This document shows positions 1,150 to 30,207 of a stretch of 53,413 bases of DNA, in pieces. Numbering within the stretch: the stretch's first letter is position 1; each line of letters opens with the position of its first letter. Made by a program: the position numbers and the translations under genes. The notes beneath the pieces were generated by a model, which was given only the letters and a program-made list of their open reading frames with translations, was not told where the DNA came from and searched no databases. Source of the DNA: an uncultured bacterium (GTDB taxonomy: Bacteria > Patescibacteriota > Minisyncoccia > Phycocordibacterales > Phycocordibacteraceae). The stretch lies in assembly GCA_947085985.1 (NCBI GenBank), contig CAMTYL010000003.1, positions 81,826 to 135,238 of the forward strand, given 5' to 3'.

Positions 1150-2388
1150 ATGAGGCCATTTTTCTACACCACCGTCACGATTGCATCTCTTGTGTTTGGG
1201 GTGTTCGTGGTACCCGCAGGAGAGGCGCGCGCTGCGACACCCACGGTTGCTTCCAGCACGTTTGAGTATTCTGGGTGGCTACCCTATTGGCGCGTTGGGT
1301 CTTCCACACGCGACGTGATGCCGAATCTCTCCAAGCTCAGTGAAGTCAATCCGTTCGGCTATACCGTTAAGAAGGACGGCACACTACACGACGCTGCACA
1401 AATAGGCAAAAAGGAGTGGCAGACACTCTTTGCGGCTGCCAAGAAGCAAAACGTGCGCGTGGTACCCACGGTTATGTGGAGCGACACCGAAGCCATCGAC
1501 AACGTGCTCTCCAACAAGAAGCTTCGCAAAAAGCACGTGGCCGCCATTGTGAACATGGTTGAGACAAACGGTTTTGATGGGGTTGATATTGATTACGAGG
1601 GTAAGCGCGTAAGTAGTCGGAGTGGCTACTCAGCGTTTCTAAAAGAGCTCTCCGCAGCACTTGCAAAGAGTAGGGGAGACAAGTGGCTCATGTGCACCAT
1701 TGAGGCACGCACCCCGCCGCAAGATTTGTATAAAACAATCCCTGCTGACTTGGAATACGTGAACGACTTCAAGGTCATAAACACGTACTGCGACCGGGTG
1801 CGCCTTATGACCTACGATCAGCAACGTGCCGACCTGACGCTAAACAAGGCCGCAGGCAAGGAGCTCTACGCGCCCGTTGCGGACGTGGTGTGGGTGAGAA
1901 AGGTAGCAACGCTTGCGCTCAAGGATATAGACAAGGATAAGCTGGTACTCGGTGTTGCTACCTACGGCTACATCTATCAAGTCATGCCGCACACAGACGG
2001 CAGTGGGTATTCGTATACGCTGCTGGAGGCATTTAATCCAAAATATGGAACGGACACCGCGCGCGAGTACGGCATAACGCCAAAACGAAACACCGCAGGC
2101 GAGCTTTCGTTTACCTATATGCCAAAGATGCCAGCGCCCCTTCCCACAAACGCAGCGCTGTCTGCAAAAGCCCCAAAGGGAACCCATTCTTCTCTAAGGG
2201 CGGCGCTCGGCGCCACTGCGCTGGCTAAAGAAAAGGGGAAGCAGACACCGTTCTATATGCTCACGTGGAGCGACGCCACCGCGATTGAGTCAAAGGTAAA
2301 ACTTGCAAAGGAGCTTGGCGTGCGTGGCATTGCCGTGTTTAAGCTTGATGGCGGACAGGATCCTGCACTTTGGACCGTTTTGAAATAA
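1150..2388 (+). CDS. Glycoside hydrolase family 18 protein, secreted
   Basis: FDGVDIDYE catalytic DxxDxDxE motif, LMTYD, signal peptide. Confidence 0.85.
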   Translation: MRPFFYTTVTIASLVFGVFVVPAGEARAATPTVASSTFEYSGWLPYWRVGSSTRDVMPNLSKLSEVNPFGYTVKKDGTLHDAAQIGKKEWQTLFAAAKKQNVRVVPTVMWSDTEAIDNVLSNKKLRKKHVAAIVNMVETNGFDGVDIDYEGKRVSSRSGYSAFLKELSAALAKSRGDKWLMCTIEARTPPQDLYKTIPADLEYVNDFKVINTYCDRVRLMTYDQQRADLTLNKAAGKELYAPVADVVWVRKVATLALKDIDKDKLVLGVATYGYIYQVMPHTDGSGYSYTLLEAFNPKYGTDTAREYGITPKRNTAGELSFTYMPKMPAPLPTNAALSAKAPKGTHSSLRAALGATALAKEKGKQTPFYMLTWSDATAIESKVKLAKELGVRGIAVFKLDGGQDPALWTVLK

Positions 2389-22983: not shown

Positions 22984-23454
22984 ATGACCGAACAGGAAAC
23001 CATGGTGAGTCAGGAAAAGTTCGACGAGATGATCGCCGAACTTGAAACGTTAAAGACCGTGCGTCGTACCGAGATTGCAAAGAATCTTGAGTACGCACGT
23101 TCCCTTGGCGACCTTTCGGAAAACGCTGAGTATCAGGAAGCACGCGAATTGCAGGCAGCTACCGAGGAGCGCATTCGTCGCTTGGAGGAGTTGGTGAAGC
23201 GCGCACATATTGTGACTGACGGAAAGAAGAAGGATGTCGTTGGTTTTGGCTCCAAAGTTGCGATAAAGCGCGAAGGAAGCAGCGAGGCGCACGAGTACAC
23301 CATCGTTGGGTCTGAAGAAGCAGACATGCGCGAGCGCAAGCTTTCACACGTCTCACCACTTGGTGCAGCACTCATGAATCGCAAAAAGGGAGAAGTGTTT
23401 ACGTTTGAGACGCCGGGAGGGAAGCAGACCTATACCGTAGAAAAGGTCTCCTAG
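22984..23454 (+). CDS. greA: Transcription elongation factor GreA
   Basis: GDLSENAEY and SPLGAALM motifs. Confidence 0.97.
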   Translation: MTEQETMVSQEKFDEMIAELETLKTVRRTEIAKNLEYARSLGDLSENAEYQEARELQAATEERIRRLEELVKRAHIVTDGKKKDVVGFGSKVAIKREGSSEAHEYTIVGSEEADMRERKLSHVSPLGAALMNRKKGEVFTFETPGGKQTYTVEKVS

Positions 23455-23462
23455 TCTGAATT

Positions 23463-23571
23463 CTAGAATTATCCCATCTGCGTTGTTGCGGGTCCCGCAC
23501 ACCTCGCTCACCGTACTACTAGTACGGCTCGCGAACTGTGCCTCCCACGCCTAGCATCTGGGCAATTCTAA
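23463..23571 (+). repeat. REP-like palindromic element, copy 3
   Basis: CTGCGTTGTTG...TCACCGTACT-ACT-AGTACGGCTC...CGCCTAGCA; outer stem TAGAATTATCCCA/TGGGCAATTCTA. Confidence 0.8.
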
Positions 23572-23689
23572 GACCTCTCTGTGTGTGTAGCGCCTTGTAT
23601 TTGAGCGTTTCTTTCGCTCCTTATACGGTTGTATAGAAAAGGGCGGGTCCGTAGGACCCGCCCTTTGGCGTTGCGTCACGTGGGTGAAC

Positions 23690-24232
23690 TCAGGACCCGA
23701 TGATGCCGTGCCGTTCTTCGAGCGCCAGAATGTAGTCGGGCGACGGTCGGTTCATGGCCGGGAACTCGGGTTCCTTCACACCGCTGCCAGTCTGGTGACT
23801 CAGCACGGTGAGCTTTTTACGCGCTCCGCGGACGGCCTTGCCAAGCACCAGGGCGAATCTGCGCCTAGTCACATCGTCCAGGTTTTCGGGCTTGATGGGC
23901 CAGAGCGCAATGCAGATGCGCGCCTTAGGGGCCCAAGTGATTGGCGCCATTTGTAGCTGCGTGAACAGCGTTTCCGAGGAACCCACCGTCAGGAAGGTTG
24001 AGCGTCGCGGGACGGTGCTGTGGTAGCCCGGGATGCACATCCGCGACTCGTCGTAGATGAACAGTGGAATAGCGTCGGCGTCGTAGCTTACGTCACCCGT
24101 GAAGTGGGTGATGATGTCCAAACGACGTCCCTTGATGGTGAGCTGTCCGAGGACGTCGCGAGCGAACTGCATGAGCGGTTCGTTCCCGCGGGTAATCAGG
24201 GTGAGTTTTTCGTAACGAGTCTTCTGTTGCAC
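23690..24232 (-). CDS. Hypothetical protein (orphan, downstream of a putative attenuator)
   Basis: GAGGGAG SD, GTG start, terminator at 23637-23666. Confidence 0.75.
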   Translation of the reverse strand: MQQKTRYEKLTLITRGNEPLMQFARDVLGQLTIKGRRLDIITHFTGDVSYDADAIPLFIYDESRMCIPGYHSTVPRRSTFLTVGSSETLFTQLQMAPITWAPKARICIALWPIKPENLDDVTRRRFALVLGKAVRGARKKLTVLSHQTGSGVKEPEFPAMNRPSPDYILALEERHGIIGS

Positions 24233-24281
24233 GTTTTTCTCCCTCTCGTGCGTTGTGAAGGTACAAAGTGTTCTAGCGAAC

Positions 24282-24394
24282 GAATCGGGGCTCCTGGCCG
24301 TTTCTGGTCAGGAGCCCCGATTCAAATTTCTTTCTGTGTACTTAGGAGGAAGAAATCTCAAGCGGAATCCTGACCGGTCGCAGTAGACCGACCA
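24282..24394 (-). promoter_or_regulatory. Putative ribosome-mediated transcription attenuator
   Basis: 1:2 CTGGTCGGT/ACCGGTCAG; 2:3 GGTCAGGA/TCCTGACC; 3:4 GAATCGGGGCTCCTG...CAGGAGCCCCGATTC. Confidence 0.65.
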
Positions 24395-24437
24395 GAACGA
24401 GTACGCGCACGACGAGAATCTGTACCGCTTGAGTCAT
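24342..24437 (-). CDS. Val/Leu/Ile-rich leader peptide (31 aa)
   Basis: MTQAVQILVVRVLVLVGLLRPVRIPLEISSS; TTGACA-17-TATTCT promoter ends 8 nt upstream of the ATG. Confidence 0.65.
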   Translation of the reverse strand: MTQAVQILVVRVLVLVGLLRPVRIPLEISSS

Positions 24438-24500
24438 GTGTTCTAAGAATAAGAGCTTCACGAGGCATTGTCAATAAACCCAGCAAATATCTATATGAAT

Positions 24501-24566
24501 GTGGGGATAACATGCACGAAGTGGGGCAGTGTGGCATATACTACCTAAGTAGTGGGATGAAGTGGG
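24501..24566 (+). promoter_or_regulatory. MraZ operator boxes and dcw promoter
   Basis: GTGG(G) at 24501, 24521, 24531, 24552 and 24562 (about 10-nt phasing) around TATACT at 24537. Confidence 0.75.
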
Positions 24567-24608
24567 AAACTAGATTTTCCGCCATCCGCCTGCGCCCTAC
24601 CTTCACAC

Positions 24609-25043
24609 ATGTTTATTGGCGAATACCGACACACCTTTGATGCAAAGAACCGCATCTCCCTCCCGGCGAAATTCCGGAAGGAACTTGGTACCTCGGTGGT
24701 GGTGACGCGCGGCTTGGATCATTGTTTGTTTATTTACCCAAAGGCAGCCTGGAAGAAGCAGGCTGCAGCGTTTGCGTCGCAATCAACGGGAAGCGCTGCA
24801 GGCCGCGGTCTTGCTCGCCTTATGCTTTCTGGTGCGTCTGAGACAGAGGTGGACAGCAGCGGGCGCATTTTAGTACCAGATTATCTAAAGAGTTTCGCAG
24901 GACTTTCTGACAAGAGCGTTGTGGCAGGCGTATCCGACCGTGTTGAAGTGTGGGACGAGAGCGTGTGGGAAGAGTACACCAAGAGCATTGAGCGCGATGC
25001 TGAGGCGTTTGCAGAAAAGCTGGGCGACCGTGGCGCGCTATAA
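24609..25043 (+). CDS. mraZ: Transcriptional regulator MraZ
   Basis: MFIGEYRHTFDAKNRISLPAKFR and DSSGRILVP motifs. Confidence 0.97.
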   Translation: MFIGEYRHTFDAKNRISLPAKFRKELGTSVVVTRGLDHCLFIYPKAAWKKQAAAFASQSTGSAAGRGLARLMLSGASETEVDSSGRILVPDYLKSFAGLSDKSVVAGVSDRVEVWDESVWEEYTKSIERDAEAFAEKLGDRGAL

Positions 25044-30100: not shown

Positions 30101-30207
30101 GTGGAGAATCGCCCAAACATCTGGGCCCTGTCGCGAAAGCGGCGGGGCCTTCACACTTTTCATAATGAAACGCGCCCCAACCATTTCTGGTCGGGGCGCC
30201 GTCTTGT

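Follow-up and report, generated by a model that had tools for sequence, protein, structure and literature searches.

A candidate ribosome-occupancy switch on a probably leaderless mRNA next to mraZ in Saccharibacteria

The DNA analyzed here, a stretch of 53,413 nucleotides from a Saccharibacteria genome (the window), carries on its minus strand a module consisting, in this order, of a promoter, a 31-codon open reading frame (ORF), a set of mutually exclusive RNA helices, a Shine-Dalgarno (SD) sequence, and a 180-aa ORF. These elements do not occur together by chance, and the leader with its competing helices has the topology of an attenuator. We see about an even chance that the module is an RNA switch of the leader-peptide attenuator kind, which would respond to ribosome occupancy on a probably leaderless mRNA and sense general translation rather than a single amino acid. 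The basis for this reading is the ORF, the promoter geometry, three alternative helices, their covariation, and their near-equal energies.

Relatives of the module were found by DNA, covariance-model, and profile searches. A protein query alone gave no match in 60 relatives because the family is too divergent, and a scan of metagenome contigs returned a single short partial match (L004, 43 residues), which was left out. About one-quarter of the species in the source's Saccharibacteria genus carry the module, and no copy was detected in the 150 searched genomes representing 131 other genera. One genome (n = 1) contained two tandem copies of the element. The mraZ gene is divergent from the module in all 34 loci examined, and an architecture of four pairing segments is kept across 34 genomes. 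A same-strand gene with its own SD begins 74 to 138 nt past the stop codon of the small ORF in 31 of the 34 loci; L037 and L044 contain runs of N, with called stop-to-gene gaps of 264 and 276 nt, and in L046 the downstream start was mis-called.

The 5′ part of the module comprises two features:
24474-24446, minus strand: sigma-70-type promoter with TTGACA (24474-24469), a 17-nt spacer, and TATTCT (24451-24446), from a consensus scan
24437-24342, minus strand: small ORF of 31 codons plus TAA, MTQAVQILVVRVLVLVGLLRPVRIPLEISSS, from the ATG at 24437 to the TAA at 24344-24342, from an ORF scan, with homologues in 34/34 loci

The promoter is the TTGACA-17-TATTCT pair already proposed in a first-pass annotation of this DNA, and it was the only promoter-like site within 23400-24700 (chance expectation, 0.8). 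The ATG of the small ORF lies 8 nt past the −10 box in the window, and in 32 of the 34 homologous loci a −35/−10 pair ends 6 to 11 nt ahead of an ATG or GTG, the boxes being conserved and the spacer sequence variable. There is no SD upstream of the window's small ORF, and an SD-like motif precedes the small ORF in just 3 of 34 loci. Because the small ORF starts 6 to 11 nt from the −10 box, the mRNA is probably leaderless and starts at the small ORF. The homologous ORFs have 27 to 34 codons, and across the 34 loci frame 0 is open in 34, frame 1 in 8, and frame 2 in none.

The following segments and helices were assigned within the leader:
24386-24397, minus strand: segment 1, TTCTGGTCGGTC, within codons 14 to 18, partner of segment 2 (folding)
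24351-24379, minus strand: segment 2, of which GACCGGTCAGGA (24379-24368) pairs with segment 1 (folding, covariation)
24306-24331, minus strand: segment 3, the A-rich stretch after the stop codon plus the 5′ arm AGAAATTTGAATCGGGGCTCCTGACC, pairing with segment 2 or 4
24397-24386 with 24379-24368, minus strand: helix 1:2, TTCTGGTCGGTC with GACCGGTCAGGA (folding)
24375-24368 with 24313-24306, minus strand: core of helix 2:3, GGTCAGGA with TCCTGACC (folding)
24433-24425 with 24365-24357, minus strand: clade-specific closing helix, CTCAAGCGG (codons 2 to 4) with CCGCTTGAG (minimum-energy fold)

The 221-nt leader folds at −84.7 kcal/mol, compared to −59.2 ± 4.2 kcal/mol for 200 shuffled sequences (z = −6.0), none of which was as stable. 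The sequence GGTCAGGATTCCGCTTGAGATTTCT (24375-24351), which encodes P-V-R-I-P-L-E-I-S, is the 5′ strand of a long alternative "antiterminator" hairpin; helix 2:3 extends in the window to 26 pairs with −28.1 kcal/mol, and the stop codon is located in the loop of this hairpin. Helix 1:2 was found in 30 of 34 loci, with at least 6 of 8 segment 2 nucleotides pairing with upstream ORF sequence in nascent-RNA folds. In an alignment that had been fitted to the rival structure, the extended 2:3 helix comprised 22 pairs, of which 8 were changed on both sides, and 93.1% of the cells were paired. None of 500 shuffles matched this paired share and covariation score, 2 of 500 matched the count of doubly changed pairs, and slid controls reached at most 64% of cells paired. 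The compensatory haplotypes in helix 2:3 were AGGA:TCCT, AGGG:CCCT, AAGG:CCTT, GAGG:CCTC, and GGGG:CCCC; in this count 2 of 33 rows were mis-anchored and scored as unpaired, and in one scan of segment 2/3 pairing 4 rows were mis-anchored.

Downstream of the stop codon, segments 3 and 4 form a second strong structure, which is followed by a small one:
24282-24323, minus strand: big 3:4 hairpin, candidate terminator or RNA 3′-end structure (covariation, folding)
24270-24281, minus strand: small second hairpin GTTC-GCTA-GAAC, directly past 3:4 (read from alignments and folds)

The arms of the 3:4 hairpin (24323-24306 with 24299-24282) form 15 pairs, an A.C mismatch, and 2 further pairs around the loop AGAAAC. 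Twelve of the 15 pairs were changed on both sides, with 91% of the cells paired; 0 of 500 shuffles reached the observed values, and slid controls gave at most 60% of cells paired versus 93% for the whole stored structure. Thus, the mutually exclusive 1:2, 2:3, and 3:4 stems that the first-pass annotation had described are indeed present. The small second hairpin appears to covary in relatives (CGTTC/GAACG, TCCGT/ACGGA, and TTGCC/GGCAA, as read from the alignments). The median energies over 30 loci were −31.7 kcal/mol for 2:3, −29.6 kcal/mol for 3:4, and −10.8 kcal/mol for 1:2. Equilibrium folds of the full leaders were dominated by 3:4 in 22 of 31 cases and by 2:3 in 8 of 31, with 2 of the 31 rows mis-anchored and L046 left out. 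In the window itself the 3:4 state is 15 kcal/mol better than the 2:3 state at equilibrium, even with segment 1 masked, which counts against a switch. L037 and L044, with their runs of N, were omitted from two alignments (A5 and A7) and from the energy computations, L043 and L050, which had anchor problems, from the SD-accessibility and helix-energy sets, and L046 from the SD-accessibility set.

The tail of the 3:4 hairpin also counts against a switch. In the window it reads GTTCGCTAGAAC, which is weakly U-rich and not a U tract, and across the family the 3:4 stem has a median ΔG of −27 kcal/mol and the tail a median of 3.5 T per 10 nt, values slightly lowered by 6 of 32 rows in which the hairpin top alone was caught. 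In 5 of 32 loci, 3:4 is followed by a run of at least four T. The first-pass annotation had already cautioned that the U tract is weak, and this caveat holds. Further strong hairpins in the window likewise have interrupted T tails. A simple terminator scan rated the 3:4 hairpin as terminator-like on the plus strand only; this call, like the absence of an SD before the small ORF, had been overlooked in the first-pass annotation. As another possible output we considered sequestration of the SD of the downstream gene. The predicted accessibility of this SD changes from 0.03 to 0.39 in the window. Among 29 loci the SD was more open in the 2:3 state in 5, more open in the 3:4 state in 7, and similar in 17 (Wilcoxon P = 0.31). 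As accessibility does not track the switch state, a translational output is not supported family-wide, and SD sequestration was rejected in this role.

The gene behind the element and the end of the transcription unit are located as follows:
24245-23690, minus strand: SD GAGGGAG (24245-24239) and 180-aa ORF from the GTG at 24232 to the stop at 23690 (ORF scan)
23637-23663, minus strand: canonical intrinsic terminator past the 180-aa ORF, GGGCGGGTCC-TAC-GGACCCGCCC-TTTT (read from sequence)

The SD and the 180-aa ORF were thus found as previously annotated, but the designation of the gene as an orphan did not hold. Its product belongs to a divergent protein family that sits behind the element in 30 of the 34 loci, and the family profile matched 239 cluster representatives at E ≤ 0.001 in a library of 1.84 billion proteins; the family is fast-evolving. 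Pfam, NCBIfam, and PADLOC searches with the 180-aa protein, 32 relatives, and long forms returned no family. The best match of the family profile to PDB sequences had an E value of 0.017 and was unrelated, and the ESM Atlas contained no usable match to the 180-aa protein. Structure prediction gave a generic alpha/beta fold that is flavodoxin/receiver-like and has a long C-terminal helix. A structure search, which the first-pass annotation had suggested for this ORF, was of little help: Foldseek returned nothing from the PDB at E ≤ 0.001, and a wide VIA-align search gave only generic receiver/flavodoxin-like matches (Z ≤ 7.4), the best being the ComE receiver domain with Z = 7.4 and a root mean square deviation of 3.9 Å over 106 residues, which is under the tool's advised trust level. 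The end of strand 3 reads F-S/T in most family members, in place of a phospho-acceptor Asp (alignment read by eye).

Many members of the downstream family possess a Lys/Arg-rich C-terminal tail, and this feature, together with the strong nucleotide-level conservation and covariation of the leader and the fact that element and gene travel together, might suggest that a protein binds the structured leader RNA, for example the downstream protein, which would then regulate its own gene, with the ORF being incidental or a helper. We consider this decidedly improbable. The window's own protein has no basic tail, the ORF is open in all 34 loci with a fixed spacing between the −10 box and its start codon, and the element is retained where the downstream gene has been replaced, by a gene for a 337-aa protein in L040 and by a DUF1328 gene in L044. 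A permissive Rfam search of 23400-24700 gave no family, the best match scoring 23 bits versus a gathering score of 90.

The properties of the peptide itself are in part at odds with the ribosome-occupancy switch. Its N-terminal half is hydrophobic in all 34 peptides and in every lineage, although the sequence varies, and besides this hydrophobicity a C-terminal motif, V-G/R-V-S/P-L-E-x-S, is conserved in the peptide alignment. These features would fit a functional small membrane peptide encoded by the first gene of a two-gene operon, whose hairpins set mRNA stability, processing, or product ratio without any sensing. In G003 (L055), moreover, a diverged lone small ORF, MSTFLRLLYTVMLTRLQPVTVSIETASR, has outlasted both the hairpin and the downstream gene, and its Ser codon is changed synonymously, a possible sign that the peptide is functional in itself. 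With the weak tail after 3:4 also in its favor, we regard this explanation as possible, though not as the favored one. It is opposed by the location of the conserved C-terminal motif codons, which lie entirely within paired RNA, and by the variable residue of the motif (I, V, or L), which shifts with its pairing partner (columns 35/77: A-U in 10, G-C in 12, C-G in 2, and U-A in 1). Furthermore, the window and L003 share the first 9 and the last 11 codons without even a synonymous change and differ at 10 codons within codons 10 to 20; the invariant end codons indicate a constraint at the RNA level. A static stabilizer would also leave two mutually exclusive helices of equal energy unexplained.

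A peptide of about 30 aa that is hydrophobic, encoded by a heavily structured mRNA, could also be a type I toxin-like product with an mRNA kept inactive by its folding, and a membrane toxin had been named in the first-pass annotation as a possibility that would refute the attenuator. In some clades a helix at the 5′ end encloses the ORF: in the minimum-energy fold, most of the window's ORF lies inside the closing helix (24357-24433), which also occurs in folds of relatives with peptides starting M-T/S-Q-A and is missing from many others. We nevertheless consider a toxin very improbable indeed, the least credible of the explanations weighed here. A consensus scan of the plus strand of 23400-24700 detected no promoter-like site, all 34 loci have an SD-preceded gene in the same orientation behind the element, the module is present as a single copy per genome at a fixed housekeeping position beside mraZ (34/34 loci), and in the window's clade a charged Arg interrupts the hydrophobic stretch.

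The first-pass annotation had interpreted the leader as a branched-chain amino acid attenuator. The four-segment architecture of this proposal stood, being covarying and kept in 34 genomes; specific sensing of Ile, Leu, or Val did not, since the run of these residues is not conserved. In the window, the reported composition of the peptide MTQAVQILVVRVLVLVGLLRPVRIPLEISSS was reproduced, with 16 of 31 residues being Ile, Leu, or Val (7 V, 6 L, and 3 I). Codons 10 to 17 encode VRVLVLVG, and the peptide resembles the Escherichia coli ivbL peptide MTTSMLNAKLLPTAPSAAVVVVRVVVVVGNAP (taken from the K-12 record). In agreement with the general lack of branched-chain amino acid biosynthesis in bacteria of the Candidate Phyla Radiation (CPR), noted at the time, the source genome (95.8% complete) had no match to the pathway families KARI_C, ILVD_EDD, Iso_dh, and Aminotran_4 and therefore must import these amino acids. 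Together with the real attenuator topology, these observations speak for an attenuator of the ilvBN kind with specificity for Val, Leu, or Ile, in which a shortage of these amino acids or of their charged tRNAs would induce the downstream gene. However, inspection of the homologues, where the ORF itself is kept in 34/34 loci, revealed the window as the extreme of the family: its share of Ile, Leu, and Val is the highest of 34 peptides (0.52; median, 0.36; minimum, 0.18), and its longest run of these residues is 5, mostly 2 elsewhere. Only the small clade of the window has the run; at the equivalent positions relatives carry Phe, Tyr, Trp, Thr, or Ala, e.g., MNYLNRWILGILVYFGLLTPVGVSLEVSK and MMHRADWRYSAYGLFRKVGGSLDVSLQK, and those without the run keep the same downstream gene family. 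This gene shows no link to amino acid metabolism in Pfam, NCBIfam, or PADLOC, and ivbL combines an SD with a clean U tract, neither of which is found in the leader studied here. Judged by these comparisons, the orthologous leaders appear to share no conserved run of amino acid codons, and the leader does not appear to control amino acid biosynthesis, transport, or charging. We therefore hold the ilvBN-like reading to be improbable.

For the ribosome-occupancy switch we propose the following mechanism. Transcription would start at or a few bases from the AUG of the ~30-codon ORF. The last ~25 nt of the ORF (segment 2) could pair with segment 3, which consists of the A-rich stretch after the stop codon and the 5′ arm of 3:4, giving a hairpin of ~25 bp whose formation would exclude 3:4. 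A ribosome keeping up with RNA polymerase to the end of the ORF would cover segment 2, so that 3:4 could form and most transcripts would end or be fixed upstream of the downstream gene. If translation of the ORF were absent, late, or stalled within the hydrophobic first two-thirds, 2:3 would form first and the downstream gene of ~150 to 180 aa would be expressed. That the small ORF is translated, that 3:4 acts as a terminator, and in which sense the switch would respond are points that we infer. As the first 19 codons in the window lineage are mostly Val, Leu, and Ile codons, a shortage of the corresponding charged tRNAs would be one possible way to stall the ribosome; considered together, the members of the family suggest that translation in general is being read out. 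A more far-reaching version, which we think unlikely, is a CPR-specific translation-status sensor: a leaderless upstream ORF switch, with a control region common to it and to mraZ, the regulator gene of the division cluster, would switch on a hypervariable receiver-like protein once ribosome activity or the supply of amino acids from the host declines. In this version, a lineage-specific and rapidly evolving response would be coupled to how well an epibiont is nourished.

Gene regulation has hardly been characterized in Saccharibacteria and the rest of the CPR, and in the literature searched we found no description of a leader-peptide attenuator in this group. If the sensor version is correct, the module would be the first one described in the CPR, and it would represent a type whose antiterminator is as strong as its terminator and carries the stop codon in the hairpin loop. 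A ribosome-dependent switch that is conserved and covaries would demonstrate that these reduced genomes keep translation-coupled RNA regulation, and that it is used on a leaderless message and for a gene unrelated to amino acid synthesis. The analysis also defines two unannotated families, the ~30-aa peptide and the fast-evolving alpha/beta protein (239 cluster representatives), whose fixed place beside the cell division cluster offers a compact experimental test case. It further calls for caution, as the eye-catching "control codon" run marks one end of the range within a family that is hydrophobic in general, and is not a conserved sensor.

The module shares with the trp, leu, ilvGMEDA, and ilvBN/ivbL attenuators a short leader ORF over segment 1 and mutually exclusive helices 1:2, 2:3, and 3:4, and the antiterminator strand would likewise be covered once a ribosome has reached the ORF's end; the window's VRVLVLVG, in addition, resembles VVVVRVVVVVG of ivbL. 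Unlike in these classical amino acid attenuators, the mRNA is probably leaderless and has no SD, no run of a single amino acid is conserved across the orthologous leaders, the antiterminator of ~25 bp is as stable as 3:4 and loops out the stop codon, and the downstream gene is not biosynthetic in a genome that lacks the pathway; the U tract is weak, in contrast to the clean one of ivbL. In mycobacteria, leaderless short ORFs act as attenuators, according to Canestrari et al. (10.1101/834739). As in the polycysteine short-ORF attenuators presented there, the mRNA here probably opens with a leaderless short ORF as its first cistron, and ribosome position would set operon expression; the module differs from them in having no such tract and a predicted SD accessibility that is untied to the switch. 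The bmrB-bmrCD type of Bacillus subtilis (Reilman et al. 2014, PMC4191407), a ribosome-mediated attenuator responding to translation stress, has drug efflux or resistance targets and an SD-led leader, whereas the target here is an uncharacterized protein and the leader ORF probably leaderless. The bmrB leader is described there as having no amino acid run, and the logic proposed for our module resembles it in combining such a leader ORF with alternative stem-loops and a requirement for leader translation.

The element, encoded on the minus strand, is flanked by greA (22984-23454, plus strand) and mraZ (24609-25043, plus strand), both assigned by Pfam, and consists of the following features:

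24474-24469, minus strand: -35 box TTGACA, followed by a 17-nt spacer
24451-24446, minus strand: -10 box TATTCT, 8 nt upstream of the ATG
24437 (ATG) to 24344-24342 (TAA), minus strand: small ORF of 31 codons encoding MTQAVQILVVRVLVLVGLLRPVRIPLEISSS
between small-ORF stop and 42-nt hairpin, minus strand: A-rich stretch
24323-24282, minus strand: big hairpin 3:4 (42 nt)
24281-24270, minus strand: second, small hairpin
24245-24239, minus strand: Shine-Dalgarno (SD) sequence GAGGGAG
24232 (GTG) to 23690, minus strand: 180-aa ORF
23663-23637, minus strand: canonical terminator behind the 180-aa ORF

What the first-pass annotation had described proved accurate: its promoter, two ORFs, SD, and pairing stems were all found, and the leader folded far below its shuffled versions (-84.7 versus -59.2 ± 4.2 kcal/mol; z, -6.0). 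It had overlooked that the big hairpin is terminator-like only on the opposite strand in a consensus scan, and that no SD precedes the small ORF, whose start is only 8 nt past the -10 box, for which reason the mRNA is probably leaderless. The stretch that separates the leader promoter from mraZ holds four GTGGG(G) boxes (24501, 24521, 24552, and 24562; 24501-24566, plus strand), which overlap the probable promoter of mraZ and recur in the relatives' loci. Since MraZ recognizes repeats of GTGGG-like boxes in the promoter of its own gene, it might also control the divergent leader promoter, which lies 27 nt from the boxes.

Queried by itself, the 180-aa protein retrieved five relatives from a large protein collection and none from 60 related genomes. 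Of 258 other genomes in the family, 16 matched the leader DNA. Within the genus, covariance model R1, built on the 111-nt core of the element, detected it in 39 of the 150 other genomes searched, and the peptide profile (E ≤ 0.01) matched in 61 of 221; R1 detected the element in none of 150 genomes from 131 other genera of the order. Our comparison covered 34 loci, one per genome and including that of the window. The divergent neighbor was mraZ in all 34, and greA was within reach in 22. A -35/-10 pair ending 6 to 11 nt upstream of the start codon was found at 32 loci, with a variable spacer sequence, and an SD-like motif upstream of the small ORF at only 3. The small ORF comprises 27 to 34 codons; its frame is open at all 34 loci, the other two frames at 8 and 0, and a same-strand gene with an SD lies downstream of its stop codon. 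The window's genome holds one copy each of the peptide gene and the protein gene. In five genomes without a covariance-model match the module was absent beside mraZ. One of these, G003 (locus L055), has a lone, diverged 28-codon ORF, MSTFLRLLYTVMLTRLQPVTVSIETASR, divergent from mraZ and resembling the family peptide, with neither the big hairpin nor a downstream family gene; it is possibly a remnant, or a sign that the peptide matters by itself. Locus L046 of genome G162 carries two tandem elements (752-855 and 1501-1615, minus strand) about 750 nt apart; in the second, the small ORF (MVHQAIIVRSHLVLLRKVGVLLDVSF) is diverged and shorter, and no family gene is clearly recognizable downstream.

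Segments 1 and 2 lie within the small ORF, segment 3 is composed of the A-rich stretch and the 5′ arm of the big hairpin, and segment 4 is its 3′ arm. The annotation had proposed a scheme of mutually exclusive 1:2, 2:3, and 3:4 stems. This scheme proved correct, with helix 2:3 much longer than had been seen. In a model-guided alignment of 33 elements, 12 of the 15 pairs of 3:4 had changed on both sides and 91% of cells were paired; none of 500 shuffles reached these values and slid controls collapsed. These comparative counts show the big hairpin to be genuine. At its 3′ end, over ~25 nt (family consensus, GGTCGGGGTTTCGCTTGAGGTTTCT), the small ORF is almost fully complementary to segment 3. 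The alternative helix 2:3 comprises 22 pairs, with 93.1% of cells paired and 8 pairs changed on both sides, as counted on the same alignment, in which the rival structure had guided the fit and the window's clade sits one base out of place. Its share paired and covariation score were reached by 0 of 500 shuffles, and slid controls gave at most 64%. Compensation is seen as AGGA:TCCT in the window's clade and AAGG:CCTT, GAGG:CCTC, or GGGG:CCCC elsewhere, and the variable codon (AUU, GUU, CUU) of the peptide's L-E-x-S motif covaries with its pairing partner (A-U, 10; G-C, 12; C-G, 2). Nascent-RNA folds showed segment 2 paired with an upstream part of the ORF (1:2) at 30 of 34 loci. Computed in isolation, the helices had median energies over 30 loci of -31.7 (2:3), -29.6 (3:4), and -10.8 kcal/mol (1:2), with window values of -28.1, -35.1, and -14.7 kcal/mol, respectively. 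At equilibrium, whole leaders were dominated by 3:4 in 22 and by 2:3 in 8 of 31 cases. Two mutually exclusive structures, equally strong and both covarying, indicate a switch; that the leader is instead bound by a protein appears very improbable.

The annotation had further read the leader as a branched-chain attenuator. Its premise, a lack of branched-chain amino acid synthesis, holds for this organism: KARI_C, ILVD_EDD, Iso_dh, and Aminotran_4, each matching in 13 to 14 of 14 control genomes, had no match in the window's genome (753 kb, 9 contigs, 95.8% complete). An amino-acid-specific attenuator is recognized by conserved control codons. In the homologs, reading frame and helices were conserved, whereas codons for Ile, Leu, and Val (ILV) were not. 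With 16 such residues, the window peptide ranks first among the 34 in ILV share (0.52; median, 0.36; minimum, 0.18), and its longest ILV run of 5 is equalled by no other, most relatives having 2. At the codons over which a stalled ribosome would mask segment 1, Phe, Tyr, Trp, Thr, or Ala occur in the relatives. Branched-chain specificity is thus not supported, and with unconserved control codons and no cognate downstream operon this reading is improbable, despite a likeness to Escherichia coli ivbL that is real for the window's one species.

Conserved in the peptide are the general hydrophobicity of the first two thirds and a C-terminal V-G/R-V-S/P-L-E-x-S, which lies wholly within paired RNA. 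A comparison of the window with the related locus L003 showed no base change in the first 9 or the last 11 codons, whereas within codons 10 to 20 there are 10 codons that differ, 5 by synonymous changes. This pattern indicates that both ORF ends are constrained at the RNA level and the peptide's middle only loosely. We consider a functional small peptide accompanied by static hairpins unlikely, and a type I toxin very unlikely.

We give about an even chance to a general ribosome-occupancy switch. In this model, for which we infer translation, transcript start, and transcript end from the sequence, a ribosome at the stop codon or within the ten codons before it would cover the 5′ strand of 2:3, and 3:4 would form. 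If the ORF were untranslated, or the ribosome lagged or stalled within its first two thirds, 2:3 could form once segment 3 was made and would then block 3:4; its stability is three times that of 1:2. The output would most likely lie at the 3:4 hairpin itself, by termination or 3′-end formation. Predicted SD accessibility does not track the switch across the family: it shifted one way at 5 loci, the opposite way at 7, and was unchanged at 17 of 29 (P = 0.31), with a rise from 0.03 to 0.39 in the window alone. The weak point of termination is the tail after 3:4, which has a median of 3.5 T per 10 nt and a run of at least 4 T at 5 of 32 loci; interrupted T tails also follow other strong hairpins of the window. 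A terminator-like hairpin at 30172-30199 (minus strand), GCGCCCCGACCAGAAATGGTTGGGGCGC, then GTTTCATTAT, resembles at its top that of 3:4, CCCCGACC-AGAAA-GG. Between the hairpins and the SD, ~20 to 30 nt past the second hairpin, loci L029 to L054 keep a motif (T)GATCTTTCA(C) (window version, ACCTTCAC, at about 24262-24255), for which several minimum-energy folds allow pairing to GAAAGA within the A-rich stretch, closing a three-way junction.

The 180-aa protein, previously called an orphan, belongs to a fast-evolving family, in which an iterative profile search united 30 of the 34 downstream proteins. The other four loci have a 64-aa ORF, a 70-aa ORF, a 337-aa protein without family, and a DUF1328 membrane protein behind the element. 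Outside its own clade, identity to the window's protein is 11 to 20%, compared with 64 to 100% for MraZ and 82 to 100% for GreA of the same loci, which points to very fast evolution. When a profile of the 26 members outside the clade was run against 34 sequences, the window's protein scored 17.1 bits (E = 7.6e-6), a modest link backed by synteny. Searched with a 33-member profile, a set of 1.84 billion proteins yielded 239 cluster representatives at E ≤ 0.001, of which 85 passed E ≤ 1e-10; a few of the representatives are 384 to 510 aa long with the domain N-terminal. In the long forms P0067, P0084, P0105, P0141 (384 to 455 aa), and P0136 (510 aa), C-terminal regions of ~280 to 400 aa follow, which had no match in Pfam, NCBIfam, or PADLOC; four of the five share the C-terminal end ...YWR...RQPWG(Y). 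Family proteins likewise matched nothing in these three databases. An AlphaFold model (pLDDT, 85.2; pTM, 0.76) predicts an alpha/beta domain of five strands, a long helix at 120-147, and a short C-terminal helix that is conserved. Foldseek gave no match at E ≤ 0.001, and a wide search returned receiver and flavodoxin-like domains at Z ≤ 7.4, below the tool's advised trust level. A C-terminal motif, MNRPSPDYILALEER(D/H)GIIGS (residues 160-180; 23693-23755, minus strand; predicted helix at 165-175), is nearly identical in four of the six closest homologs and missing in the other two, while the rest diverges to 42% identity; the window's genome has no second copy.

Comparative evidence supports the architecture of the element, which would work like a leader-peptide attenuator. 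It falls outside the amino-acid-specific class, since conserved control codons and a cognate downstream operon, the two defining features, are both lacking. In this one species the peptide resembles E. coli ivbL, MTTSMLNAKLLPTAPSAAVVVVRVVVVVGNAP. The latter, in contrast, precedes acetohydroxy-acid synthase and is equipped with both an SD and a clean U tract. In full-text literature searches, no listed paper dealt with such an element in Saccharibacteria. As nearest precedents we regard the short leaderless polycysteine ORFs known from mycobacteria (10.1101/834739) and leaders without amino acid runs that answer translation stress, such as bmrB (PMC4191407).
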